Source: Candidatus Omnitrophota bacterium
Lineage (GTDB): Bacteria > Omnitrophota > Gorgyraeia > S143-82
Length of the DNA: 33,943 nucleotides
Assembly: GCA_027065215.1 (NCBI GenBank)
Contig: JAMOOT010000259.1
Coordinates: 1 to 33,943, forward strand
Direction of reading: 5' to 3'
Under the pieces are notes generated by a model, which was not told the DNA's origin, ran no database searches, and worked only from the letters and a program-made list of their open reading frames with translations. Both the position numbers and the translations under genes were made by a program. Numbering within the stretch: the first letter of the stretch is position 1; each line of letters opens with the position of its first letter. Positions 3,079 through 33,943 of the stretch are shown here, one piece after another.

Positions 3079-4733
3079 TGCGAAGTGATGAGGTAAAAAA
3101 GGGGTTAGAGCGGGTTCCCCATCGGGCATTGTTATACGCTACGGGTATTAACGAGAAGGATCTTACTCGTCCGTTTATTGGTGTTGCTTCGGGTTTTACG
3201 GATATAATACCTGGGCATGTGGAATTGCGGTCCTTAGAGAGGTTTGTTGAACGAGGGATTGCTTATGCAGGTGGTGTGCCGTTTATCTTTGGTATCCCAG
3301 GGATATGTGATGGCATTGCTATGGGCCATAGTGGGATGTTCTATTCCTTGCCGTCTCGAGAGTTGATTGCTGATGCTATTGAGTGTGTGGTAGAGGCGCA
3401 TAAGTTTGATGGATTGGTTTGCTTAACTAATTGCGATAAGATTACTCCTGGTATGCTTATGGCTATTGCACGATTAAATATACCAGCAATAGTGGTTACT
3501 GCTGGGCCAATGATTGCTGGTAACTTCGCTGGGCAACGATTGTCTTTGGTGAGAGATACATTCGAGGCCTTGGCCAGATATAAAAAAGGAGAAATAGACG
3601 AGGACACGCTTAACAATTTAGAGATACGCGCTTGCCCGGGGGTTGGTTCTTGCCAGGGGCTTTATACTGCCAATACAATGGCTTGCCTTACTGAGGCCCT
3701 TGGGATGAGTTTGCCTGGTTGCGGGACGGCCCCTGCGGTTTTGGCTGAAAAGAAGAGGATAGCCACTTATAGCGGGGAGCGAATAGTGGAGTTAGTTAGG
3801 GAGAACATTCGACCACGCGATATTATGACAAGAGATGCTTTTGAGAATGCGATTACAGTTGATATGGCCTTGGGGGGGTCTACCAATACTGTACTTCACC
3901 TTTTGGCTGTAGCCCATGCTGCAGAGGTGGATCTGCCCTTGGAGGTCTTTGACCAGATAAGTCAAAGGACGCCTCACATTGCAAGTTTGCGGCCTGGAGG
4001 GGACTATTTTATGGAAGACCTGCATTGGGCGGGAGGAATCCCTGCAGTATTAAAGACCTTGGGAGATAGGATAAAAGATAATCTTACTGTCAGTGGAATG
4101 AAGGTAAGGGATATTCAGAAACGGGCTCGTGTGTTTTACTCAGATGTGTTAAGGCCAATAGATAAGCCTTATCATCCAGAAGGAGGATTAGCGGTTCTTT
4201 GGGGTAATTTGGCTCCAGAGGGAGCAGTTGTCAAGCAATCAGCAGTAAGCGAGAAGATGTTGAAGTTTAAAGGGAAGGCAAGGTGTTTTGATAGAGAAGA
4301 GGATGCACTTAAAGAGATATTGGGAGGAAAGATTCAGGCCGGTACAGTCATAGTTATCAGGTACGAAGGCCCTAAGGGTGGGCCTGGTATGCGGGAGATG
4401 TTGGCGCCTACCTCTGCTGTTATTGGCATGGGGTTGGGAGAGTCAGTGGCCTTGATTACTGATGGTAGGTTTTCAGGGGGAACTCGTGGCCCGTGTATTG
4501 GACATGTCTCTCCTGAGGCCGCTGAAGGAGGACCAATTGCTTATGTGAAAGATGGAGATGAGATAGAGATAGACATCCCTAATAAGAAGATAACCTTACT
4601 TGTTTCGGATAAGGAGTTAGAAGATCGAAAGAAAAAGATGAAATTATTGGGGCCGAAGATTACCAAGGGATATCTTGCTCGTTATTCTAAGATGGTGACT
4701 TCTGCCTCTAAAGGTGCAGTATATATGGATTGA
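3078..4733 (+). CDS. ilvD: dihydroxy-acid dehydratase
   Basis: MRSDEVKKG...RALL N-terminus, the [13 protein letters not shown] motif, and GGPGMREML...[12 protein letters not shown] 3078 is preferred over the in-frame GTG 3075 because GAAGGAGG (3064-3071) sits 6 nt upstream. The stop of fba overlaps the start. Confidence 0.95.
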
Positions 4734-11164: not shown

Positions 11165-12247
11165 ATGGGTAAGTACGTTTTTGTCGCGTTAGTTTTTTTG
11201 AGTATCTTTTTAACCTTTTTCTTCGCAATTGGATGGAAAGATAATGTGCCTATGCACCGGCCGATTTTTTCATCTTCCAGGTTTATTTATGACTACGCAC
11301 ATCTTGTTTCTCCAGAAGGTAAAGCAAGACTGGAGAAGTTTCTCGAACATCTTTGGCGAGATTACGATATAGAACTAATTGCAATTACGACCCCATCCTT
11401 AGGCAACTATACTATATCGGAGTGGGCCAACATGATTTTTGAAAACTGGCATGTGGGTAAAAATACACGCGGTGAGAAGGGGATTCTGTTTGTGGTTGCT
11501 CCGTATGAAAAAAAGGTGCGTCTCGAGATAGGTAGAGGTTTGGAGGGAGTTTTTACTGATGCGTTTGTAGGGTATATAGAACGTGAGCAGATGAAACCTT
11601 TTTTTGAAGAGGCAAGGGTCGGTGTGGGGGTTGAAGCGACACTTGAACTTATTGTAAGCAGGATTGAGAAATTTATTAAGGAAGGAAGATACAACCCCAC
11701 AGAAGGTAGAAAACAAGAGGGAGGTTTTGCTTCTTCTGGTGCGGGCGCACAGAAGAATGTGGATATAGGGAGTGTTCATCGTCAGAAGAAGGATGTGGTT
11801 ACCGAAGATTTGAAGGAATATTTCAGTGCGCAACCTACTCCTCAGCTCACATTAGAGAGGTATCTTGAGGCCTGTAGCCGCCATATAAAAGACCCAAATC
11901 TGGGAATATATACTGAGGAGACAAAAGAGTTTTTTAGAAACTGGACAGTGACGAATGCCCAGATGGATAATATGAGAATGTATGAAGGTGTCCCTTTTAA
12001 GTTGATGATAGAAGGAGACTATGCGGTAATTTTCTATCCTGATAAAGACTGGACCTACAGCCCTTTCTTTTTGAAAAAAGGGCCGGCGGGGTGGCAACTT
12101 GACTTTGCTACGATGTCTAAGGTTATAAGATTTAATCAGAACAACTACTGGTTTTTTGTTTCATTTGATCATCCTTATATGTTCGCTTTTCGTAAGTATA
12201 TGATAGATGAGAATGGGTTTGTATGGTTTAAGTATAGGAAGAGGTAG
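11165..12247 (+). CDS. TPM-domain membrane protein with uncharacterised C-terminal domain
   Basis: N-terminal TM/signal anchor. TPM (YgcG/TLP18.3-like) core: YDYAHLVS...IELIAITTPSLG...WHVGKNTRGEKGILFVVAPYEKKVRLEIGRGLEG. A Gly-rich linker is followed by about 175 aa that are homologous to the middle of ORF 12565..14379. Confidence 0.8.
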   Translation: MGKYVFVALVFLSIFLTFFFAIGWKDNVPMHRPIFSSSRFIYDYAHLVSPEGKARLEKFLEHLWRDYDIELIAITTPSLGNYTISEWANMIFENWHVGKNTRGEKGILFVVAPYEKKVRLEIGRGLEGVFTDAFVGYIEREQMKPFFEEARVGVGVEATLELIVSRIEKFIKEGRYNPTEGRKQEGGFASSGAGAQKNVDIGSVHRQKKDVVTEDLKEYFSAQPTPQLTLERYLEACSRHIKDPNLGIYTEETKEFFRNWTVTNAQMDNMRMYEGVPFKLMIEGDYAVIFYPDKDWTYSPFFLKKGPAGWQLDFATMSKVIRFNQNNYWFFVSFDHPYMFAFRKYMIDENGFVWFKYRKR

Positions 12248-12266
12248 TTTTAGTAGGGGGAAGGAG

Positions 12267-12560
12267 ATGATAAGGACTTGGAAAGACAAACTAAAATCAT
12301 TGTTTGTGTTTGGCGGGAGAAAGATTATTACTGAAATTGGAGCCGTTAGTGCTTCAGATAGGAAAAACCTTGGCTGGCGCTATGGTCACAAAACGCTTAT
12401 TAAAGTGTCGTTATTAGAAGAGAAACAAACTGCTGAAAGGAGTTTGGGTATAGAGATTGTATATAAAGGTATTGGTTGCTACAGAGTATCACCAATAGTT
12501 TTGAGCAAACAAGAGGTGCAAGAGTTAATAGAATTACTTAGATCCGCGGTTCAAAGATAA
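12267..12560 (+). CDS. hypothetical small soluble protein (97 aa)
   Basis: ATG 12267 directly follows AAGGAG (12261-12266). It lies 19 nt after the previous stop and 4 nt before the next start. No TM segment and no motif I recognise. Confidence 0.5.
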   Translation: MIRTWKDKLKSLFVFGGRKIITEIGAVSASDRKNLGWRYGHKTLIKVSLLEEKQTAERSLGIEIVYKGIGCYRVSPIVLSKQEVQELIELLRSAVQR

Positions 12561-12564
12561 AAAT

Positions 12565-14379
12565 ATGAAGTGCAAGAAGGAGACAGAAAGAACAGTGAAG
12601 AGTAAGTTGCAAATTTTTTTGGTTAGCCTTATTATTTTATGCACCTCACTGGATTATATTTACGCTTTTTCATCTGACAATTTGGCATACAAAATAGGGA
12701 TGTTTCTTAAAAAAGGTAAAGTGCCGCCGAGAAGGCCTTCCCAGAGCAGATACTGTTTTGATTTTTCCGGTGTGGTTCCGAAAGATGTAGTTAGGGATAT
12801 TGATGGTTATGGCAGAAGCCTGAGAGAGGAGTTTGATATTGATTTTGTCGTTATTGTTACGCCATCTATTCCAGGGGAAGACATCAGTACTTTTGCTGCG
12901 GATATCTTCAGCAAATGGGAAATTGGTAAAGAAACAAAGGGGCGGAAGGGTATTCTTATACTCATCGCTCAGGAAGATCAAAAGGTAAAGATAGAGGTGG
13001 GGTACGATTTAGAGAGCATATATTCTGACCTCTATGTTGCTCGCGTTGAGCGAGAAATACTTGAAGAATTTTTAGCGCAGGCCGACTGGAAGAGAGGGTT
13101 TTTAGCCACTATAGAGAATTTTATAGAACGAACTTATCATATGCAGGATAAAGGGGTAAACGTAAGAGGAGTTACAGGGACAGCAAGACTGGGGTATTAC
13201 TCAGGTGGTGCAGGAGCAAAAGGGACGTTTGATTTCGGAGCAGCGTTGAGTAAACCGTTACCACAGACGCAGCAAGACTTACGCAAGTATTTTGGTGCAC
13301 AGCCAACGCCAGAACTTGCTTTTCGGAGATATATGGAATTCTGTGCGCGTAATATGAAGGATTACACTCTGGATCTGTTTAATGACCGGACAAAATTTTT
13401 CTTCAGTTACTGGCCCACAGCAAGCGGACAAAGGCGTTCGGAGGCCGAAGAGTGGGATGGGTTAAGTTATGAAGTCCGGCAGAAGGGTAAGTGGGCGGTG
13501 GTATTTCATCCTGACTCCGATTATATGAAAATGGCGCAGCATCCCGTATATCTTATTGAAAAAACAGATAAAGGGTGGCAAATGGATTTAGATGCTATGG
13601 CAAGGGGGCTTTCTTATGGAGGAAGGTTTGTCCACTGGGTCAATGGAGCTTGGCTTTATCCTTATGTAGAACTTTTTATGGATGATTATACTTTGAAACC
13701 GAATACCGCCTGTCTTATCAGAAAAAAAACCGATGTTGGTACGTTTGGTATATATTTTCTGGGTACAGGTCTATATAACCCTGCAGAGCCAGGTGTACAT
13801 ATTGGAGTGTGGGAGAAAATACAAGATAAGGACAGGAACGGGTTGCGCACAGGAGATAGCATAGTATCTATTGACGGGAAGAAAGTTCCGCGTGGCAGGG
13901 AAGGCGAGAGAATAGTAACGCGTTATCTTATAAATAATGTAAAAGCCGGAGACCGGCATCACCTGCGTATCTGGCGGGGATGGCGTTTTATTGAGCTGGA
14001 TGTTGAAGCGCAACCTGTTGGTAATGATTCATTCAGCGATTTTAGAAGGTGCCTTGCAGTACCGCGTGTGTGGATGGGTGTATATATCGGGATGACTAAC
14101 GAGGAAGAAGAAAAATATGTAAATGGACCCTCCACAGTTGTGCTGGATGTCTATCCTGGTAGCCCTGCGGATAAAGCAGGACTAAAGAGAGGTGATATCA
14201 TTTGTAAAGTTGGTGGTAAACGCGCTCCCTATGATGAACTTCTCCCGGGCCAGTTTCTGAAGATTTTAAGAAGTCATAAAGCCGGAGATAGGCTTAAGCT
14301 GGAAGTGTTGCGTAACCTCAAAGAGCGAAAAGCGGTAACGGTTGTATTAGAAGAAACAGAGCATAAGGGTTACTATTAG
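12565..14379 (+). CDS. TPM-domain membrane protein fused to the shared unknown domain and two PDZ domains
   Basis: N-terminal TM. TPM core (DIDFVVIVTPSI...WEIGKETKGRKGILILIAQEDQKVKIEVGYDLES). The middle region parallels the C-terminus of ORF 11165 (YFGAQPTPELAFRRYMEFCARNMKD versus YFSAQPTPQLTLERYLEACSRHIKD). PDZ-like GLRTGDSIVSIDGKKV and a classic PDZ, PGSPADKAGLKRGDIICKVGGK. Confidence 0.8.
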   Translation: MKCKKETERTVKSKLQIFLVSLIILCTSLDYIYAFSSDNLAYKIGMFLKKGKVPPRRPSQSRYCFDFSGVVPKDVVRDIDGYGRSLREEFDIDFVVIVTPSIPGEDISTFAADIFSKWEIGKETKGRKGILILIAQEDQKVKIEVGYDLESIYSDLYVARVEREILEEFLAQADWKRGFLATIENFIERTYHMQDKGVNVRGVTGTARLGYYSGGAGAKGTFDFGAALSKPLPQTQQDLRKYFGAQPTPELAFRRYMEFCARNMKDYTLDLFNDRTKFFFSYWPTASGQRRSEAEEWDGLSYEVRQKGKWAVVFHPDSDYMKMAQHPVYLIEKTDKGWQMDLDAMARGLSYGGRFVHWVNGAWLYPYVELFMDDYTLKPNTACLIRKKTDVGTFGIYFLGTGLYNPAEPGVHIGVWEKIQDKDRNGLRTGDSIVSIDGKKVPRGREGERIVTRYLINNVKAGDRHHLRIWRGWRFIELDVEAQPVGNDSFSDFRRCLAVPRVWMGVYIGMTNEEEEKYVNGPSTVVLDVYPGSPADKAGLKRGDIICKVGGKRAPYDELLPGQFLKILRSHKAGDRLKLEVLRNLKERKAVTVVLEETEHKGYY

Positions 14380-14636
14380 GTGAGTTTTAATGGCATAGAA
14401 GACACTGCCCTGTAGGTACTATTGATTGTTTTTTTTGAAGACATTCGATTAGCGTATTATCTCTGATATTTTGCTGTAGATAGATGGTATCCTTTGTTTG
14501 ATTTATTGTTAGATATATTACCTTTTTTTCTTGTCCATAAGTTACTTAGAGCCTCCAGTCGAGTGAAATGAGTTTATCTCCAAACACTTCTTAAGCAGGG
14601 AAGATCCATTGGAGGTTAAAATACTACCTTGTCCAG

Positions 14637-14665
14637 TTGACAGGCCTTATTTGATAGATTTTACT
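14637..14665 (+). promoter_or_regulatory. candidate sigma70-type promoter for the giant ORF
   Basis: Perfect -35 TTGACA (14637-14642), a 17-nt spacer, and a weak -10 TTTACT (14660-14665), about 37 nt upstream of ATG 14702. The -10 lacks the conserved A2, so the call is weak. Confidence 0.25.
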
Positions 14666-14701
14666 TCTATTAGTAGGGGGTTTTATTGTTGAGGGTAAAT
14701 A

Positions 14702-17700
14702 ATGAAGATGATGCATAGGTTATTTCACATTTGTTTGTCATTCTTAGTATTATTTTCGTTTATGCCTACCAATGCTCAATCCTATGGATTGGGTGATTTG
14801 AGTAATATCTCTGGAGTGGTAGGAGTAAAGGTGGAGGGAGGGCTGCCATCGTTGTTGTTCGCTGAGGGGGAAAATAGTGAGGAGATGGAGAGGTTGTTTT
14901 TCCAGTTATATGGGTTAGATGATCCAGAGAGGGAGTTGTGGGTAAATCTAAAGCCCGGAGTGGGGAGCAAGGGATTGATAGGGAGATGGGTAGGGTGTAT
15001 GGATGTGGGGAGGTACTTGTTCGAGACTGATCTGAGGTTGAAAGAGGATGCCACAAGGATGGTTGATGAGGTATTGGAGGATTATGGAATAGATGTGGGG
15101 GAAGTAGGGTTGGAGATGAGATTTTGGATAGAGGGGGGAGATGTAAGGATGAACGAGTATGAGGATGGAATGTTGATAGATGAGGCGAGATTGAAGGTGA
15201 GGGCAGAAGTAAAAGGATCGACTAAAGAGGGGGTAGAGGAATTAAATAGGTTGATTAACGGATTGGTAATACCAAAGTTAAAGGAAGAGGTGAACGAAGG
15301 GAAGAGATATAAAAGGTTAAGGGAATTGTATCGCTTGTATATAGTAAGTAGGTGGTTAAAAGAAAAGGAAGTGGGTAATGGGCTGGTGGAGAGGGTGGCA
15401 TACTATTATGGGAGGGTTGGCAGTAAGGAATGGATGCTGTTGGATGTGTTGAGAAGATATTTGATGATGTATGAAGGCGTTGATGGGGATATTGGGGGAT
15501 GTGTGGTGGGAGGGGTGTATCTTGGTAAAGTAGGAAGGATAATGAAGCGGGTGGCAGAAGGTGGTATGGGAGGCATAAGGAAGATAGGTAGGGTAGGAAG
15601 GAGGATACTATTCAATAAAAAATTTGTTGTGTTTATGGCCAGTTTGATGTTTGCGGTGCAGACCGTGGGTGGAAGTATATCGTTGGCAAGAGGGTTGGAT
15701 TTTGGAGAGATGCGAATTGGACAGTATGTATCTGAGAATAGGGAACTCAAGGAACAAATCCACGAAATACTTAAAGATGTAAAAATTACCTCAAGCAAAG
15801 ATGTTCTAACTTCTTTGTATAGTAGATGGAAAGACCAATTCTCTGTAATAATTCAAGGAAAAGGGGATAAGGTTGATAGTATCGTCATAAAAGACATCAG
15901 AAAGGCCATTATTTTATCTTTTCATCCTATTTACGGTGACCTTTTTGGCAATCTTTTGGTTAAGGCCCAGAGATGTAAAATACAGCAGCAGATAACAATG
16001 GGAGATATCAATTGGATAATGGATTTTTATAGAAACTATTCTAAGTATAGAAATACACGTCGTTATCAGAATTCTATGAGATTACTTGGTAGTTTGTTTC
16101 AGAATGATTCGTTTTTGAAGTTATTTAATCAAATAAAGGGAAAGGAATTATGGGGGCCTAATAAATGGAGGATAGAAGCATTAAATTCATGGCTGTATCC
16201 GGAAACGGCCAAATCTTGGTCCCTTACAGAAGATTCTTCTCTTTTAAAATTTACAAAGGATAAGGAGGAAATTAAAAAGAATCTTGATAAGTATAAGAAT
16301 TTGGCAAAGAGGTTGTTTTATTATTGGGTATATGCAAAATCGGGCGATAGATCGCTTATAGATTCGTATATCAAGAAGGTTACAGAAGAGATTAAGTTGG
16401 AGATGAGAGAGATTGGTGAAAAAGATATGGCAGAATATTCAGTGAAATTTTATGTGTATGAAAGTAAGATACGGGGAAAAGAGATGAAAAAGATATTCCC
16501 TGGGTTATTTGAATTGGCAAACTCAGGGGACCCATATGCTACTGCACTTTGGATAAATGTGGAGTTAGAACTTAGGTATTGGGCTGGTGGCAGATCTGGT
16601 TTTAGATTTAGCAATTTAAAGACTATCTTAAGCGATGTTTATATAAATTTGGGTAAATTAACGGATGAAGAGAAAAGAGATTTTGTTAAGTTTATGTGGT
16701 GGCTTTACTTCCGCTCGGGTAAGAGTTTTGTTCCTCCTAACGTGCGGAAAAAGGTCTTTTCTGAGTTGATTCACCATTTGGATCTGGGAGAATATTTGGA
16801 TACTATAAGTGGTATGACTGATTTTATGAAGGGTTTCAATAAACTTATAGATGATGAAGATTCCATGTTTTCATTGAGATGGGAGTTGATGCTTAAGCAC
16901 TACGAGATTTTAAGAATCGTCAAAACTACTAACGAATGGGAGAAGAATAATTTTGGACATATTGAGAAAAACCCAATTTTCGTCTTACCAATCCCGATTA
17001 TAGATAATCTGGACAGCAGGTGGATAAGATTTTTCATATTAGCGCAGCGATTTGGTTTTGAAGAGAGGTTATTAAGATTGATAGATTTGGATAAGATTAT
17101 TAAGGTTAATCTCGCGATACCATTAAGGTTATCGGATAATTTTTGGAGTGCTAAGAAAGATGAGGTGGAAGATTTCCTTTCGTTTTTCCTTTTTAGAAAA
17201 GGCGTATACGATCCAAGATTTGAGTATGGTACGTTTAATTTTTCCCAATTGTTTTTTCTATATTTTTCGGATATCTTCCAGAAAGGGTTTAAGGATATAA
17301 AGGATAGGCAATTGAAGTTTGTTTTGTTGTGTGGTGTTATGTCTTGGTTGATTGACAATGGGAAATATGATGTGCAAAAAGGAGGATTTGATTTTAATGA
17401 AGATCAGATTAGGTCAGCGATAAAACATGTGAGAAAGAGTTGGGAGTTGATGAAAGACAGAAAAATAACCTTTGCTAAAGGGTTATATAATTTAGTGGAG
17501 ATCTGTGATTCTAATTTTCCAAACACAGGGAAAGACGGATATGAGAAACTTTTGTCACCTAACACTTCGATTAGATATAGAGATAAAGATAAATTCTTAA
17601 AGGGTATTAAGGACATCAAAGGGCCATTGTGGTTGGGAATTATGATCCATGGAGGGGCAGATGTGGCAAAATATAAGGAAGGGGATCGAGATAATGCTTT

Positions 17701-18598
17701 TTATCTTGTCTCGCCAGATAAGAAAGGACGCATTACTGTAGATGAGATGGTAGATGCATTAGAGGGGTATGCTAAAAATAATAACGGGGACCTGTCTAAG
17801 ATGGTTATTGTAGCAGGAAATTGCTATTCTGGTTTTTGGATAAATGTATTAAAGAAATTAGGGAAAAATGTAGAAATCAAAGGCGCCCCGATTGTCCTAT
17901 CTGGGGCCTTGCCGACCTCACCTCAATTGGGATTTACGAATGTCTTTTTCTCCATTTTTGGATCTAATAATATCGGTACATTTTGGGATGTTGCAATACA
18001 GGAGTTTTTAGAAGATCAACATAAAGATGGAAAAACGACTGCCACTATATATGATTTGTTTAACTATTTAGCCGATAAGAAGTTGCCCTTTTTCCCGATG
18101 ATTTATTCGGTGGAAAAAGAAGGTAAAGGGCAGAAGAAAGGAGTTCGTTTTCTCCTTTTATCTCTGGGAACTCCTTTTGGCGTGTTTCCGTGGATGCCTA
18201 CGGAAGAAAAGGAACCGGAGGAATTGTTTAGAGAATTTTTGGACAATATAGAGGATTGGGTAGAGGAGACCGGGTATCAGAGTTTGTTTGTAAACTGGTT
18301 AAGGGAGAATAAGGATAGATTACTTTCGCTTGTGAAGGATAATAGGACCAGGGAAATGGGAAGGGTATCGGTGGAGGGAATTAAGGATTGGGTGGAAAAG
18401 ATAGAGAGGGGAGAGAATCTATTGGAGGAGGATGCGGAAATGGCAATAGTGAAAATAGCAGGGATGATTAGGGATAATCCAGAGGGCTTTGTGAAAGCAG
18501 TTACTGAGAAAATAGAGGAGATATTTGCCCAGTCTAATGAATTGGCTAAGGAGAAGGGAGGCATAGAATTTTCGGATAGGGTTCTCTTGGGGGATTAA
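14702..18598 (+). CDS. orphan 1,298-aa envelope protein with C-terminal caspase-fold (clan CD, C13/CHAT-like) signature
   Basis: Uninterrupted 3.9-kb ORF with GAGGGT 6-11 nt upstream of the ATG. N-terminal hydrophobic signal-like segment (MKMMHRLFHICLSFLVLFSFMPTNA|QS). Second hydrophobic helix at aa 308-329 (15623-15688). LGIMIHGG (His983, 17648-17650) and MVIVAGNCYSG (Cys1041, 17822-17824), each preceded by a hydrophobic strand. Acidic helical tail. No other family recognised. Confidence 0.85.
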   Translation: MKMMHRLFHICLSFLVLFSFMPTNAQSYGLGDLSNISGVVGVKVEGGLPSLLFAEGENSEEMERLFFQLYGLDDPERELWVNLKPGVGSKGLIGRWVGCMDVGRYLFETDLRLKEDATRMVDEVLEDYGIDVGEVGLEMRFWIEGGDVRMNEYEDGMLIDEARLKVRAEVKGSTKEGVEELNRLINGLVIPKLKEEVNEGKRYKRLRELYRLYIVSRWLKEKEVGNGLVERVAYYYGRVGSKEWMLLDVLRRYLMMYEGVDGDIGGCVVGGVYLGKVGRIMKRVAEGGMGGIRKIGRVGRRILFNKKFVVFMASLMFAVQTVGGSISLARGLDFGEMRIGQYVSENRELKEQIHEILKDVKITSSKDVLTSLYSRWKDQFSVIIQGKGDKVDSIVIKDIRKAIILSFHPIYGDLFGNLLVKAQRCKIQQQITMGDINWIMDFYRNYSKYRNTRRYQNSMRLLGSLFQNDSFLKLFNQIKGKELWGPNKWRIEALNSWLYPETAKSWSLTEDSSLLKFTKDKEEIKKNLDKYKNLAKRLFYYWVYAKSGDRSLIDSYIKKVTEEIKLEMREIGEKDMAEYSVKFYVYESKIRGKEMKKIFPGLFELANSGDPYATALWINVELELRYWAGGRSGFRFSNLKTILSDVYINLGKLTDEEKRDFVKFMWWLYFRSGKSFVPPNVRKKVFSELIHHLDLGEYLDTISGMTDFMKGFNKLIDDEDSMFSLRWELMLKHYEILRIVKTTNEWEKNNFGHIEKNPIFVLPIPIIDNLDSRWIRFFILAQRFGFEERLLRLIDLDKIIKVNLAIPLRLSDNFWSAKKDEVEDFLSFFLFRKGVYDPRFEYGTFNFSQLFFLYFSDIFQKGFKDIKDRQLKFVLLCGVMSWLIDNGKYDVQKGGFDFNEDQIRSAIKHVRKSWELMKDRKITFAKGLYNLVEICDSNFPNTGKDGYEKLLSPNTSIRYRDKDKFLKGIKDIKGPLWLGIMIHGGADVAKYKEGDRDNAFYLVSPDKKGRITVDEMVDALEGYAKNNNGDLSKMVIVAGNCYSGFWINVLKKLGKNVEIKGAPIVLSGALPTSPQLGFTNVFFSIFGSNNIGTFWDVAIQEFLEDQHKDGKTTATIYDLFNYLADKKLPFFPMIYSVEKEGKGQKKGVRFLLLSLGTPFGVFPWMPTEEKEPEELFREFLDNIEDWVEETGYQSLFVNWLRENKDRLLSLVKDNRTREMGRVSVEGIKDWVEKIERGENLLEEDAEMAIVKIAGMIRDNPEGFVKAVTEKIEEIFAQSNELAKEKGGIEFSDRVLLGD
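14800..15620 (+). other. cytosine-depleted, G-rich block (5' part of giant ORF)
   Basis: Hand count gives about 43 C in 14821-15600 (about 5-6 %). The 60-nt line 15061-15120 has 0 C and 28 G. Sampled neighbouring genes have about 17-20 % C. Confidence 0.8.
14962..14995 (+). other. canonical G-quadruplex motif on the coding strand
   Basis: GGGG-agcaa-GGG-attgata-GGG-agat-GGG-ta-GGG: five G-tracts with loops of 7 nt or less. A second, looser motif lies at 15485-15515 (GGGG-N5-GGGGG-N9-GGG-N1-GGGG). This is a sequence motif only; folding is untested. Confidence 0.5.
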
Positions 18599-18802
18599 CT
18601 TAAAAATGAGTGGTATGAGGCGGGGAATCTTGATAGAGTGGGGGGAAGAGGAATAGAATAAGTAGGATAAGATTGGGTTTTAACAAGGTATGTGAAGATT
18701 TATTGTTGATTTTGGTGCTTTTTTCTTTTAATTCCCTTGGGGATGATGGGTGGTTTTAATGGGGTTAGGATTTTGTCTTTAATGTGATAGAATAATTGAG
18801 TT
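18230..18802 (+). other. second cytosine-depleted block spanning the 3' end of the giant ORF and the following intergenic DNA
   Basis: Hand count gives about 8 % C in 18241-18598 (coding) and about 5 % C in 18599-18802 (204 nt, non-coding). Confidence 0.75.
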
Positions 18803-19972
18803 ATGGATAATCGTTCTCGAATATCCAAAATAGTTGATTCTTTGCCTCCCTCTGGGATTAGGCAATTTTTTGATTTAGTTATTGGAATGCCTGATGTAGT
18901 CTCCTTGGGAGTGGGTGAGCCAGATTTCCCTACGCCGTGGCATATTTGTGAACGCGCGATTTATTCCATTGAGAGAGGATATACTTCTTATACCTCTAAT
19001 AAGGGATTGAGAGATCTTCGGGTGGCTATCTGTGAGAAAATAAGTAAGGAGTGGGGACTTTCCTATGATCCGGATGCCCAGTGTCTGGTTACGGTAGGGG
19101 TAAGTGAGGGGATGGACCTTGCCTTGAGGGCAATACTAAACCCAGGAGATAAGGTTTTGGTGATACGGCCCTGTTATGTATCTTATGCCCCAGTTGCTAT
19201 AATGGCTGGGGCTAATGTAGTCTACCTTGATTTAGATGAAAGGACGGAGTTTAAACTCCATCCTGAATTGTTGAAATTGATAATGAAAAAAGAAGGCCCA
19301 ATAAAGGCGATGGTCTTTAATTATCCGTGCAATCCGACTGGGGTCTCTTACACTTATGAGGAGTTGTCAGCGATATTCAAGGTTGTAGAGGATTCAGAGG
19401 TTATCCTCCTCAGCGATGAGATTTACGATGGCCTCACGTATGATTTTTCCCATACACCATCTTTTGTGTTTGATGGATTAAAGGATAGATTGGTGTATTT
19501 AAATGGTTTTTCCAAGACTTTTGCTATGACTGGATGGAGAATTGGATATGCTCTTGGCCCGGAAGATATTATATCTGCTATGACCAAGATACATCAGTAC
19601 ACTATGCTCTGCGCCCCTATTATGGGTCAGGTCGCGGCTATTGAGGCTATGGAACATGGCTCTGAGGAATTAGAGCGTATGCGGAATGAATACCGTAGGC
19701 GTAGGAATTTTATTGTTTCGGAATTGAACAGGTTAGGGTTAAAGACGCGACTTCCTGAAGGGGCATTCTATACTTATACAGATATATCTTCCACGGGAAT
19801 GGATTCTATGGAATTTGCTCAAAGACTATTGTGGGAGGAAAAGGTGGCGGTGGTCCCGGGGGTTGCATTTTCCCCAGGAGGTCATAGATTTATCCGTATT
19901 TCTTATGCCTCTTCTTTGGATAAATTAAGGCAGGCAGTTTTTAGAATGGAGGCCTTCCTTGAGCGGTTATAA
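18803..19972 (+). CDS. pyridoxal-phosphate-dependent aminotransferase, class I (aspartate/aromatic type)
   Basis: 389 aa. LGVGEPDFPTP, NPGD, YPCNPTG, and the PLP-lysine motif FSKTFAMTGWRIGY. Confidence 0.9.
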   Translation: MDNRSRISKIVDSLPPSGIRQFFDLVIGMPDVVSLGVGEPDFPTPWHICERAIYSIERGYTSYTSNKGLRDLRVAICEKISKEWGLSYDPDAQCLVTVGVSEGMDLALRAILNPGDKVLVIRPCYVSYAPVAIMAGANVVYLDLDERTEFKLHPELLKLIMKKEGPIKAMVFNYPCNPTGVSYTYEELSAIFKVVEDSEVILLSDEIYDGLTYDFSHTPSFVFDGLKDRLVYLNGFSKTFAMTGWRIGYALGPEDIISAMTKIHQYTMLCAPIMGQVAAIEAMEHGSEELERMRNEYRRRRNFIVSELNRLGLKTRLPEGAFYTYTDISSTGMDSMEFAQRLLWEEKVAVVPGVAFSPGGHRFIRISYASSLDKLRQAVFRMEAFLERL

Positions 19973-30109: not shown

Positions 30110-33100
30110 ATGGAGGATGGGATGGATTACTCTTCTCTTCGTTCAGTTGGTTTGTATGAGCCCAGGTTTGAACACGATGCCTGTGGAGTGGGTTTCCTTT
30201 GTGATGTAAAAGGGAATCGGTCTAATAAATTGGTTCAAGATGCCCTTACTGTTTTAAAACGTTTGGCCCATCGAGGGGCGGTTGGGGCTGATCCTAAGAC
30301 AGGGGATGGGGCAGGGATCCTCATTCAGATCCCTCATGAGTTTTTCTTGGAGATTTCTGACTCCATAGGGATCGATCTCCCGAATTTGGGTTACTATGGT
30401 ACAGGTATGGTTTTTCTTCCAAGAAAGAGAGAGGAGAGAGAATACTGTAAGGCTGTGTTCTCAAAGGTGGTTGAAGAAGAGGGACAACATCTTTTGGGGT
30501 GGCGGGAGGTGCCGATAGATGACTCAGATATTGGGAAAGGTGCAAAAGAGGCTGAGCCGATAATAGAACAGGTCTTTATAAAGCGCGCAAAGGGGCTGAC
30601 AAATCAGGTAGATTTTGAACGTCGTCTTTATGTTATTCGTAAACGGGTAGAAAACACGGTTCGTGCTTCCGATATTAGCCAGAAGGGTTTTTTCTATATC
30701 ACAAATCTTTCTTCTCGCACGTTCGCATTTAAAGGGTTGTTAATGCCTCATCAAGTTGAGGATTTTTATGTAGATTTAAAGAATCCCAAGATCAAGAGTG
30801 CGATAGTATTGGTTCATTCTCGTTATAGTACTAATACATTTCCTACTTGGGATTTAGCCCAACCATTTAGGTTTCTTGCTCACAATGGGGAGATAAATAC
30901 CTTACGAGGAAATATTAATTGGATGCGAGCAAGGGAAGGTCTGCTTTCTTCTCCTCTTTTTGGGGATGCAATGGAATTGATAAAACCGATAATTGTTCCG
31001 GGAGGAAGTGATTCAGCCACTATTGATAATGTGTTTGAACTTTTGGTCTTGGCAGGCAAATCTTTGCCTGAGGCTATGCTGATGCTTGTCCCTGCGGCGT
31101 GGGAACAAGATAAATTGATGGATGAGAAGTTGCGCGATTTCTACAAATTCCACGCCTGTCTTATGGAGCCGTGGGATGGTCCGGCATCTATTGCCTTTAC
31201 CGATGGCAGAAGTGTTGGCGCTGTGCTGGATCGGAATGGATTGAGGCCAGCCAGGTATATCATTACCAAAGATGATTTTGTCGTTATGGCATCTGAGATG
31301 GGGGTTTTGGATATAGACCCGAGTAGAATAGCGGTCTCTGGTAGGCTTGAACCTGGTAAAATGTTTTATATTGATACAGAGGAGGGTAGAATAGTCCACG
31401 ATGAAGAGATAAAGGATAGGGTTTCTTCCCGTAGGCCTTATGGAGTATGGTTAAGACAATGGTTGGTTGATGTCAATGATCTTCCTACACCAAAGAAATT
31501 ACCTCCTAAAAGCGATAATCTCCTTAGAGATCTACAGGCCTTTGGGTATTCACGGGAAGATTTGAAGGTGTTAATCAAACCTATGGCTGAGACAGGTAAA
31601 GAACCGATTGGGTCTATGGGCAATGATACACCGCATGCGGTTCTGTCTAATCAGCCTAAATTGCTTTATGATTATTTTAAACAGTTATTTGCCCAGGTGA
31701 CCAATCCAGCCATTGACCCAATAAGGGAAGAGATAGTAATGTCCTTAGATAGTTTTATCGGTCCGCAGAAAAATATATTGGAGGAGACACCTGAGCACTG
31801 CCATAAACTTTATCTTAGAGAACCAATTCTTACCAATGAGATGTTGGAGAGGATTCGAGAGATAGATGAGAGAGGCTTTAAGTGCAAGAGGATTTCTGTG
31901 TTGTTTGATATTGAAGAAAGAGATAATTTCACGAAGGCGTTGGACCGAATATGTAGAGAAGTGGAGGATGCAATAGATGAGGGGTACTCATTTATTATTC
32001 TCTCGGACCGTGGAATATCCGAGAATAGGGCAGCACTTCCTATGCTCTTGGCAGTTGGAGCGGTACACCAGCATCTGGTTAGAAGGGCAAAGAGGACTCA
32101 GATAGGTGTTATAGTGGAAAGTGCTGAGCCAAGAGAGGTGCATCACTTTGCGCTTCTTTTTGGATATGGAGCGGATGCGATTAATCCTTATCTTGCCTAT
32201 GAAACGGTGGAGTACCTTTGGAGAGAAGGCCTATTAGATGTCGGCTCTCTTGAAGAGGGAATTGAGAATTATCGTAAGGCTGTAGATAAAGGGATATTGA
32301 AGATTTTGTCTAAGATGGGGATTTCTACTCTTCGGAGTTATCGAGGAGCGCAGATATTTGAAGCCTTAGGGATTCATGAGGAGGTAATTGAAAGGTGTTT
32401 TACTGGGACGCCCTCTCGTATAGGTGGAGTTGATTTTGATATTATAAGAGAGGAGACAGTTCGTCGGCATAGGATAGCATTTCCAGAAGAAAAGAGGGAG
32501 ATTCATATACCATATCTCGTAACAGGTGGGATTTATCAGTGGAAGAAGGATGGTGAGTTTCATTTGTGGAATCCTGCTACTATTGCTTCCCTACAGGATG
32601 CAGTGCGTAAAAATGATTATGGCCGGTACAAAGAGTTTGCCGGGATGATAAACGATCAGTCTAAACAGCCCACAACTCTTCGAAGTTTGTTGAAGTTTAA
32701 GAAAACGAATCCTATTCCAATAGAGGAGGTAGAGTCAGTAGAAAATATCTTGACCCGTTTTGTTACTGGGGCTATGAGTTTTGGTTCTATCAGCCGAGGT
32801 GCCCACGAATCACTTGCTATTGCTATGAATCGAATTGGAGGCAAGTCTAATACAGGTGAAGGGGGAGAAGATCCAAGGAGGTTTTTGCCTTTGCCAAATG
32901 GTGATTCTACCCGTAGCGCGATAAAACAGGTTGCATCAGGTAGGTTTGGGGTTACCACAAATTATTTGGTGAACAGCGATGAGATACAGATAAAGATTGC
33001 TCAGGGGGCAAAACCGGGTGAAGGAGGGCAGTTGCCGGGCCATAAGGTAAGTGTAATAATTGCTCGGACTCGTTATACTACACCGGGTGTGACGCTTATC

Positions 33101-33943
33101 TCCCCGCCGCCCCACCATGATATATACTCTATTGAGGATCTGGCTCAGTTGATATTTGACTTGAAGAATGTCAATCCCTCCTCTCGGGTGAGTGTCAAGT
33201 TAGTCTCTGAAGTTGGAGTAGGGACGATTGCCGCAGGAGTGGCTAAGGGGCATGCGGATATGATTTTGATCTCTGGAGGGGATGGTGGGACAGGCGCTTC
33301 ACCCCTTAGTTCTATCAGACACGCTGGTCTCCCTTGGGAATTAGGGTTGTCTGAGACACATCAAACCTTAGTCCTTAATGACTTGAGGTCGCGTGTTAGA
33401 CTTCAAACCGATGGACAGATGCGTACTGGTAGGGATGTGGCGATTGCAACGATTTTGGGTGCAGAAGAATATGGTTTTTGCACAGCAGCTCTTATTGTTA
33501 TGGGATGTGTTATGTTGCGTCATTGCCATCTAAATAATTGTTCTGTAGGAGTGGCTACTCAGGATGAGATCTTACAGAAGCGTTTTAGGGGCCGACCAGA
33601 ATATCTGGTAAATTATCTTCGGTTTGTTGCGCAGGAGTTTAGGGAGATTATGGCACAATTGGGTGTTCGCACCGTTGATGAGTTGGTAGGCAGGACAGAC
33701 CTTTTGGAACTTGATACGGCTATATTACCGTGGAAGGCAAAGAAGATAGATTACTCGCGCATACTCTATAAGCCGAAGGTCCCTCCTACAGTTGGGATCT
33801 ATTGTCAGATACCCCAGGATCATGGGATCGATAGGGTTTTGGATAGAAAACTCATTGAGTTTGCTAAACCAGCATTGGATAAAGGAGAGAGGGTAAAGGC
33901 CGAATTTGAGATACGAAATACAGATCGTACAACGGGTGCAATG
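30110..33943 (+). CDS. gltB: glutamate synthase large subunit, 3'-truncated by the window end
   Basis: Missing from the ORF track because it has no stop inside the window. I translated the first ~1.3 kb continuously and spot-checked motifs further downstream, and 30110 to 33943 is exactly 1,278 codons. EHDACGVGF (Ntn Cys at codon 25), [22 protein letters not shown], and the FMN domain [12 protein letters not shown]. An in-frame TAA immediately precedes ATG 30110. ATG 30122, preceded by GGAGGA, is the alternative start. Confidence 0.95.

Follow-up and report, generated by a model that had tools for sequence, protein, structure and literature searches.

Why should one domain of one bacterial protein be encoded almost without cytosine? 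The question arises from a contig of a Candidatus Omnitrophota bacterium (JAMOOT010000259.1, assembly GCA_027065215.1), analyzed from position 1 to position 33,943 (hereafter the window), in which an open reading frame (ORF) at 14702–18598 of the plus strand encodes a protein of 1298 amino acids (aa; P0001) that recurs identically in two independent assemblies of the same organism. A sequence-only reading of this DNA had noticed that the 5' 0.8 kb of the ORF is nearly free of C on the coding strand, and had proposed that the gene is chimeric or horizontally assembled, that selection favors a C-poor and weakly structured mRNA, or that the G-rich non-template strand is prone to R-loops or G-quadruplexes (G4). 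Our data suggest, with a probability that we put at roughly 0.4, that the block is the product of selection that has long acted on the nucleic acid, within this domain only, to keep the coding strand poor in pyrimidines and unable to pair with itself.

The depletion is extreme and local. Exact counts over 14821–15600 give 43 C in 780 nt (5.5%), alongside 40.5% G, 30.0% A and 24.0% T, and no C at all in the line 15061–15120, just as had been counted by hand; over all 33,943 nt of the window, C stands at 14.7% and G at 26.9%. Stretches of 780 nt taken outside the block average 15.0% C (sd 2.1) and reach 9.0% at the lowest, while their purine content of 55.6±3.3% (maximum 65.3%) compares with 70.5% in the block. 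A maximal-scoring-segment analysis of the window returned 14813–15605 on the plus strand as the best segment (score 59.9), and counts and codon analyses likewise describe it as C-depleted (~5.4%), G-rich (~40%) and purine-rich (~70%), with a GC skew of 0.75–0.82. The non-template strand has a skew of 0.76–0.82 over 15001–15600, and the longest C-free run in the window, 99 nt at 15055–15153 of the plus strand, falls within the block (chance expectation ~54 nt). C is scarce at all three codon positions (5–6%, compared with 15, 18 and 12% in reference genes). Since the GC content of the block is 45%, versus 42% for the genome, the change lies only in how G and C are distributed between the strands. 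Spurious long minus-strand ORFs, which had been attributed to the skew, do have low-complexity translations rich in Pro, Ser, Thr and Leu (14766–15056, 14782–15054 and 15406–15798), as would be expected where scarce plus-strand C leaves few minus-strand stops.

Amino-acid choice and codon choice both contribute to the deficit. When codons were resampled from window usage with the amino acids held fixed, 77.2±6.6 C were expected in 822 nt and 47 were observed (0 of 20,000 samples were as low); an average gene segment of that length contains ~123 C here. The C deficit is ~60% a matter of amino-acid composition and ~40% synonymous. The claim that the skew goes beyond an amino-acid effect was therefore correct: C content and AGR use both depart from those of neighboring genes, and the skew did not disappear when amino acids were controlled for. 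Arginine is encoded by AGR (R, purine) in 24 of 26 cases, the sole CGN codons being one CGC and one CGG, exactly as had been read; the 25 neighboring genes used as reference have AGR at 262 of 508 arginines. Leucine is TTR in 24 of 31 cases and isoleucine ATA in 10 of 13. At 4-fold degenerate sites, purines make up 0.80 of third bases in the block versus 0.49±0.054 in the 25 genes, with C at 0.062 versus 0.164 and T at 0.135 versus 0.349, so that both pyrimidines are down ~2.6-fold. The choice between C and T in 2-fold codons ending in a pyrimidine is unchanged (C/(C+T) 0.20 in the block, 0.21 in the reference), and in those ending in a purine G is favored over A (0.68 in the block vs 0.55). 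The synonymous component is a purine preference, for G above all, and not an avoidance of C as such. Avoidance of C is real at the replacement level: Pro, Thr, Ala, His and Gln together account for 5.1% of the block versus 19% of residues in neighboring genes, while Gly, Glu, Arg, Val and Met are enriched.

The block encodes a genuine, conserved, modular protein domain, and the composition boundary is the domain boundary. The protein opens with a signal-peptide-like N-terminus of normal base composition (14702–14779, plus strand; MKMMHRLFHICLSFLVLFSFMPTNAQ, of the form MKMM...TNAQ, judged by eye from the translation), directly followed, in the position usual for its family, by an N-terminal domain (N-domain; aa 28–307, 14783–15622, plus strand) that a profile search and an alignment (A3) assign to a very large unnamed family found throughout Omnitrophota. 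A transmembrane (TM)-like hydrophobic helix comes next (15623–15688, plus strand; FVVFMASLMFAVQTVGGSISLA), is conserved in the ortholog described below and marks the 3' limit of the block; beyond it lie ~970 aa of ordinary composition and no recognized family, ending in ...KEKGGIEFSDRVLLGD. The best-scoring segment begins after the signal peptide, ~110 nt into the ORF, and stops 18 nt short of the helix. The earlier statement that the block ends at the helix, where the domain also ends, is accurate for the segment as a whole and too strict for its synonymous part, which fades ~20–40 codons past the helix and not exactly at it. In both orthologs, the 4-fold purine bias is high over codons ~51–350 and then falls, within ~50 codons, to ~0.4–0.5; the remaining 3 kb of the gene have ordinary 4-fold composition.

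Searches of the ORF at 14702–18598 with Pfam, NCBIfam and PADLOC returned nothing significant, and the N-domain family has no Pfam or NCBIfam model and no homolog in the PDB. That the window's domain belongs to this family was established by a BLASTP match to P0003, a partial match (8e-22 over aa 51–294), by the 32 invariant columns of alignment A3, and by the presence of the family motifs WVNL.P, DL.LK.D, R.WI, LKV and VN...Y..LR. A profile built from three N-domains of the window's own subfamily and searched against 1.84 billion representative proteins matched 7034 of them (representatives at 50% identity) at E≤1e-3 and 6366 at 1e-10, with thousands of typical members at ~1e-45. All 361 confirmed family loci in reference genomes belong to Omnitrophota or mislabeled relatives, with several paralogs per genome, and every member is named "hypothetical protein" in its source record. 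The family survey covered 14783–15622 and 18540–18598 of the window, proteins P0004–P0267 and loci L088–L166. The domain is always N-terminal (~aa 55–340) in host proteins of 400 to 4900 aa with unrelated C-terminal parts. The usual layout is a signal peptide, a conserved N-domain of ~290 aa (consensus FWVNLRPD...EADLQLKKDTA...RPWIVPGEI...LKVMLEQD...EVN.SKRY..LRQVYYSL), a highly varied middle and a conserved C-terminal module of ~90 aa that starts at GGIDFR. By eye, some stretches of the middle look like housekeeping enzymes, glycolytic ones among them. The window protein and its ortholog, which ends in KKGGIEFGY, carry the first motif of the GGIDFR module and nothing of the rest, so their GGIEF... 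ends are apparently a stub of it.

An AlphaFold2 model of aa 28–307, computed from a 49-sequence alignment and of reasonable confidence (maeca8adb0261; pLDDT 76, pTM 0.79), predicts long helices flanking a long beta-hairpin with strands at 111–126 and 129–144. Searches of the PDB with the N-domain, by sequence and by fold, gave no significant match; the best fold matches were to the ClyA-type toxins MakA, MakE and NheA (E 0.13–2, best 0.13; TM-score ~0.14), which at these non-significant values are a lead only. The N-domain would presumably lie outside the cytoplasm.

Comparison with relatives indicates that the bias has been kept up over a long time. A word-indexed search with the full-length protein gave three matches: P0001 itself, a full-length ortholog (P0002) that is 33% identical over its length, and P0003, which shares only aa 51–294, that is, the block. 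Identity between the two orthologs is 52% within the block and 34% outside it, making the N-domain the best-conserved part of the protein. Where a residue with a 4-fold site is identical in both, the third base agrees in only 38% of cases, which amounts to synonymous saturation. The ortholog's locus (L001) nevertheless has 3–9% C and 34–41% G over nt 3819–4568, and its block contains 50 C where 71.7±6.2 are expected from its own amino acids and local codon usage. Its 4-fold sites have purines at a frequency of 0.825 in the block, whereas the rest of the gene has 0.51 and neighboring genes 0.57; its choice between C and T at 2-fold sites is normal, and its 5' untranslated region (5'UTR) and signal-peptide codons show no skew. 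Since the skew persists at saturated synonymous sites, the bias must have been maintained and not merely inherited. C-poor patches also occur near the 3' end of L001 (7419–7568, 3% C).

The expectation that homologs would keep the skew holds for this ortholog and no further. A homolog with 61% GC (L002) is unskewed, and L005/L087, with the same shortened version of the domain (29% identity, 12.3% C), has a mild skew that comes from amino acids only, with no synonymous bias. Genome and metagenome scans with subfamily patterns added just L005/L087 and L086, none with synonymous bias; among the 1.84 billion representatives, none was closer than E ~1e-45, and no skewed homolog from another lineage appeared among the homologs and 79 family loci examined. 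In those 79 ordinary loci (L088–L166) the N-domain contains 22.6±3.2% C, with a minimum of 15.3%, and is richer in C than its flanks: the difference in skew, domain minus flanks, is -0.17±0.07 (maximum +0.025), compared with +0.47 for the window's copy and +0.36 for that of L001. Pro, Thr, Ala, His and Gln make up 5.0% of the domain in the window protein and 7.0% in the ortholog versus 21.6±1.9% (minimum 14.3%) in 146 family representatives, and Gly, Glu, Arg and Val make up 46.6% and 41.0% versus 20.6±2.2%. Over the 20 residues, the enrichment of a residue relative to the family correlates with the excess of G over C at its codon positions 1 and 2 (rho 0.75, p=1e-4; rho 0.66 in the ortholog), and the residue shifts of the two orthologs agree (r=0.81). 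The depleted residues Q, T, P, A and S share codon chemistry and not physical chemistry. In sum, the bias affects replacement and synonymous sites, is independently maintained in the ortholog and is absent from other family members.

The mRNA of the block is predicted to fold weakly. In the core, 15001–15600 on the plus strand, minimum free energies range from -4 to -17 kcal/mol per 120 nt; the mean across 15001–15540 is ~-11 kcal/mol per 120 nt, versus -26±5 for GC-matched windows elsewhere. Allowing G4 in the energy model changes little (core -11.6, controls -24.5). G-runs, canonical and two-tetrad G4 motifs, GGAGG, GAGG, AGGA and GGA occur in the block at 2–5 times their density elsewhere, but none exceeds what mono- and codon-shuffled sequences contain, and G residues are not clustered beyond chance. 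The only canonical G4 motif in the whole window, (G3+N1-7)x4 at 14962–14990 of the plus strand, compares with 0.6±0.7 expected in shuffles. The ortholog has no canonical G4, three GGAGG where ~5 are expected and no GGGGG where 5–8 are expected. Dinucleotide odds ratios in the block are near 1. An Rfam scan of the whole window gave no matches; a promoter and terminator scan of 14000–19000 gave counts at shuffle level, with no terminator at the block's 3' edge; and a search for direct and inverted repeats found short chance pairs only, with no internal repeats. Because there is no oligonucleotide signal beyond base composition, the selected property would be compositional.

Several specific causes can be set aside on these results. 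Selection for G4 or for Shine–Dalgarno-like pause sites is rejected by the shuffle-level motif counts, and avoidance of YpA steps (Y, pyrimidine), which would relate to RNA lability, is unsupported by the dinucleotide odds ratios. Cytosine deamination or AID-like hypermutation is rejected, as T is depleted rather than enriched. Mutagenesis by a diversity-generating retroelement was dropped, since such systems target adenines in short 3' variable regions and there is no repeat template here.

In one small Omnitrophota lineage, the domain has been rewritten into near-C-free codons, with a purine wherever the code allows. The reading that we favor is that the nucleic acid itself, and most probably the mRNA, has long been under selection for a pyrimidine-poor strand that does not self-pair. 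Purine loading would here have reached an extreme within a single domain, in a genome whose coding strands already carry much more G than C. C would be the most dispensable base, being required only for Pro, Thr, Ala, His and Gln and most Ser codons, all of them replaceable residues, and T would have been kept at codon position 2 for hydrophobic core residues and in codons that must end in T or C; the fuller loss of C than of T would then be a consequence of the genetic code. Candidate benefits include unhindered translation or export of the domain, avoidance of RNA–RNA interactions, and escape from an RNA-binding factor or a nuclease that depends on C or on pyrimidines. We infer that the bias is upheld by selection rather than by mutation, and that selection acts on how the RNA pairs; the one physical consequence verified, as a prediction of the folding model, is a core mRNA with almost no structure. 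Of the three accounts first proposed, a C-poor, weakly structured mRNA fits best (core -11 vs -24 to -26 kcal/mol), although its purpose is not proved by the folding.

Several observations weigh against this reading. Weak folding follows automatically from the composition and so is no proof that folding was selected, and the first ~200 nt of the block (14821–15000) are predicted to fold normally. G has risen by 13 points and A by 1, though A would serve non-pairing equally; the rise of G rather than A may be explained if a constant GC content (45% vs 42%) is assumed. Only two sequences carry the trait. Furthermore, codon usage was judged against 25 neighboring genes of the window, not against the genome, and no highly expressed genes are among them. 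A more pointed version, that nucleic-acid selection overrode the protein alphabet of an ancient domain since C, or pyrimidines in general, would do harm at this place in the RNA or DNA or would be read by something, is possible but doubtful. Candidates for the reader would be a terminator of the Rho kind, a ribonuclease or toxin specific for C or for pyrimidines, or a cytosine-modifying enzyme; alternatively, the stretch could be a GC-skew or R-loop device for the expression or diversification of a cell-surface protein. If true, it would present a natural gene segment made invisible to a base-specific factor.

Alternatively, the nucleotide skew may be a by-product of adaptation in the protein, toward a domain rich in Gly, Glu, Arg, Val and Lys with few polar residues, which might serve, for instance, its stability or solubility in an extracellular setting and possibly at high temperature. 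The amino-acid share of the C deficit (~60%) is consistent with this, as are the domain's charged residues (33% vs 26%), its few uncharged polar ones (S, T, N, Q and H, 7.7% vs 17.6%), its IVYWREL fraction (0.551, versus 0.431 in neighboring genes and 0.405±0.021 in other Omnitrophota), and the finding that it is the best-conserved part of the protein and models as a compact fold. We nonetheless consider it unlikely, since it leaves unexplained a synonymous purine bias that is repeated in the ortholog at saturated sites, since the lost residues P, T, A, Q and S are alike in codon rather than physicochemical terms while enrichment follows codon G minus C, and since Gly at 14.6% would be an unusual choice for stability. 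An origin in mutation has to be separated by scale. A strand- or transcript-wide mutation bias is contradicted: the remaining 3 kb of the gene have ordinary 4-fold composition despite the shared transcript and replication direction, and in two lineages the bias has sharp edges that follow the domain. A local strand-asymmetric regime in the first kilobase of the gene, linked for instance to single-stranded DNA or long-lived R-loops close to the promoter and merely followed by the amino acids, would suit a block at the 5' end of a transcription unit, a non-template GC skew of the kind known to stabilize R-loops, and a background that is already skewed (gatB has a skew of 0.25, against a median of 0.10 in 80 relatives). 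It is less likely still, because the net change is from pyrimidine to purine, with T down, whereas cytosine deamination raises T; because the ortholog's 5'UTR and signal-peptide codons are unskewed and the bias starts ~110 nt into the ORF and stops abruptly near the domain boundary in both orthologs; because the C/T choice at 2-fold sites is unchanged; and because the domain is more, not less, conserved than the rest of the protein.

The two remaining accounts are close to those first proposed for the locus. A G-rich DNA or RNA element within the coding sequence (G4, Shine–Dalgarno-like pauses or GGA protein-binding sites) might regulate translation or recombination of a surface protein, and would draw on the 2–5-fold denser G-runs, two-tetrad G4, GGAGG and GGA in the block and on the organism's use of GGAGG-type ribosome-binding sites at several genes. 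This is improbable given that all motif counts equal the mono- and codon-shuffle expectation, that in the ortholog GGAGG is at or below expectation, GGGGG is absent and canonical G4 number none against one here, that G4 terms barely alter the folding energy of the core, and that dinucleotide odds ratios are near 1; of the suggestion of a G-rich, G4-prone non-template strand, the extreme GC skew is borne out and the G4 part is not. Least probable is a chimeric or horizontally acquired segment that retains its donor's composition. Modularity of the sort imagined does exist, in that the same N-domain is fused to many unrelated downstream parts and the composition boundary coincides with a domain boundary. 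A foreign origin fails in that ordinary members have 22.6% C, with 0 of 79 below 15.3% and no skewed homolog from another lineage among those examined, in that an ortholog with saturated synonymous sites shares the skew, where a donor signature would have decayed, and in that the GC content of the block equals that of the host.

Purine loading is among the closest known systems. The purine excess of the mRNA-synonymous strand is known from Szybalski's transcription-direction rule and from the work of Forsdyke and colleagues, and is reportedly stronger in thermophiles. The block resembles it in a coding-strand purine excess that is visible at third positions and comes at the expense of protein composition, in a predicted drop in RNA self- and cross-pairing, and in a synonymous bias independent of amino acids (0.80 here, 0.825 in the ortholog); the host also shows the genome-wide form, with 55.6% purine, a GC skew of +0.27 and co-oriented genes. 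Purine loading is, however, described as mild and genome-wide, whereas the block is extreme (70% purine, 5% C, 4-fold purines 0.80), is confined to one 0.8-kb domain with sharp edges, and reverses the composition that the domain has in relatives. In the EBNA1 mRNA of Epstein–Barr virus, a purine-biased coding region, the Gly-Ala repeat, limits its own translation. There too a coding segment has a strong synonymous purine bias and a nucleic-acid property is thought to be selected, but that segment is a low-complexity repeat with G4, while the block is non-repetitive, conserved, globular (as modeled) and without G4 excess. R-loop-forming regions with GC skew, such as immunoglobulin switch regions and CpG-island promoters, share with the block the G-richness of the non-template strand, which extends for hundreds of bases where a transcription unit begins; unlike it, they are non-coding or promoter-proximal and depend on G clusters, and the block is protein-coding with G clustering at chance.

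Rho utilization (rut) sites, which are C-rich and G-poor in RNA, are the compositional opposite of the block, whose antisense strand is rut-like. In any 78-nt window of the block C/G is at most 0.33 (antisense ~10), and YC dinucleotides number 2.3 per 100 nt versus 7.2 elsewhere. Judged from composition only, the sense RNA of the block should be a very poor Rho substrate and its antisense an excellent one. An anti-Rho function is speculation only: 936 nt pass without a 78-nt window in which C exceeds G, but three other stretches of the window are equally long without one, so the block is not unique. Across the window, C exceeds G in 7.5% of 78-nt windows on the sense strand and 90% on the antisense strand; antisense RNA of the window would be uniformly rut-like and sense RNA almost never. 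We found no published account of a conserved globular domain recast in a near-C-free alphabet.

GC skew, purine loading and similar asymmetries of composition tend to be weak and spread over whole genomes, and ascribing them to selection is difficult. This block is extreme, bounded by a domain, opposite to the same domain in thousands of relatives and maintained across saturated divergence, and it offers a natural experiment on how far nucleic-acid selection can reshape the amino-acid alphabet of a protein: the domain remains conserved although five to six kinds of residue have nearly vanished from it. It also points to a very large unannotated family of proteins in Omnitrophota, putatively a phylum of predators or parasites.

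The genomic background is itself strongly asymmetric. All 26 long ORFs of the window lie on the plus strand, and GC skew is positive almost everywhere (~+0.27). West-Roberts et al. (bioRxiv 10.1101/2023.11.21.568195) report complete Omnitrophota genomes whose replichores have almost all their genes on a single strand, and the window's background agrees with this. The GatB protein, at ~60% identity to its best matches, assigns the organism to Candidatus Omnitrophota, and the gatB skew of 0.25 is near the top of the 80 Omnitrophota relatives. The IVYWREL fraction of neighboring proteins lies ~1.2 sd above that of other Omnitrophota, and the Zeldovich regression, taken literally, would place it at ~69 °C, a weak hint of a warm habitat.

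The second-best G-rich, C-poor segment of the window, at 18202–18698 on the plus strand, scores 19.5 versus 59.9 for the block, has a GC skew of 0.55–0.62 and takes in the acidic C-terminus of the ORF that contains the block, together with the beginning of the adjoining intergenic spacer. The second-longest C-free run, 85 nt at 12192–12276, lies at the start of another ORF (12207–12560) that encodes 117 aa with no family match, has 10% C and AGR at 10 of 11 arginines, and stands between two TPM-domain genes.

Farther downstream in the protein, at ~17640–17830 (aa ~980–1045), both orthologs conserve a His-Gly ... Cys pair (IHGG ... VIVAGNCYSGFW in the window protein, THGK ... VIVAGNCFPGFW in the ortholog) that by eye resembles a caspase- or clostripain-type catalytic dyad, with no Pfam match in support. 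At the 3' end of the window, a glutamate-synthase-like ORF of at least 1278 aa (30110–33943), absent from the ORF list solely owing to its truncation, runs past the end of the sequence.

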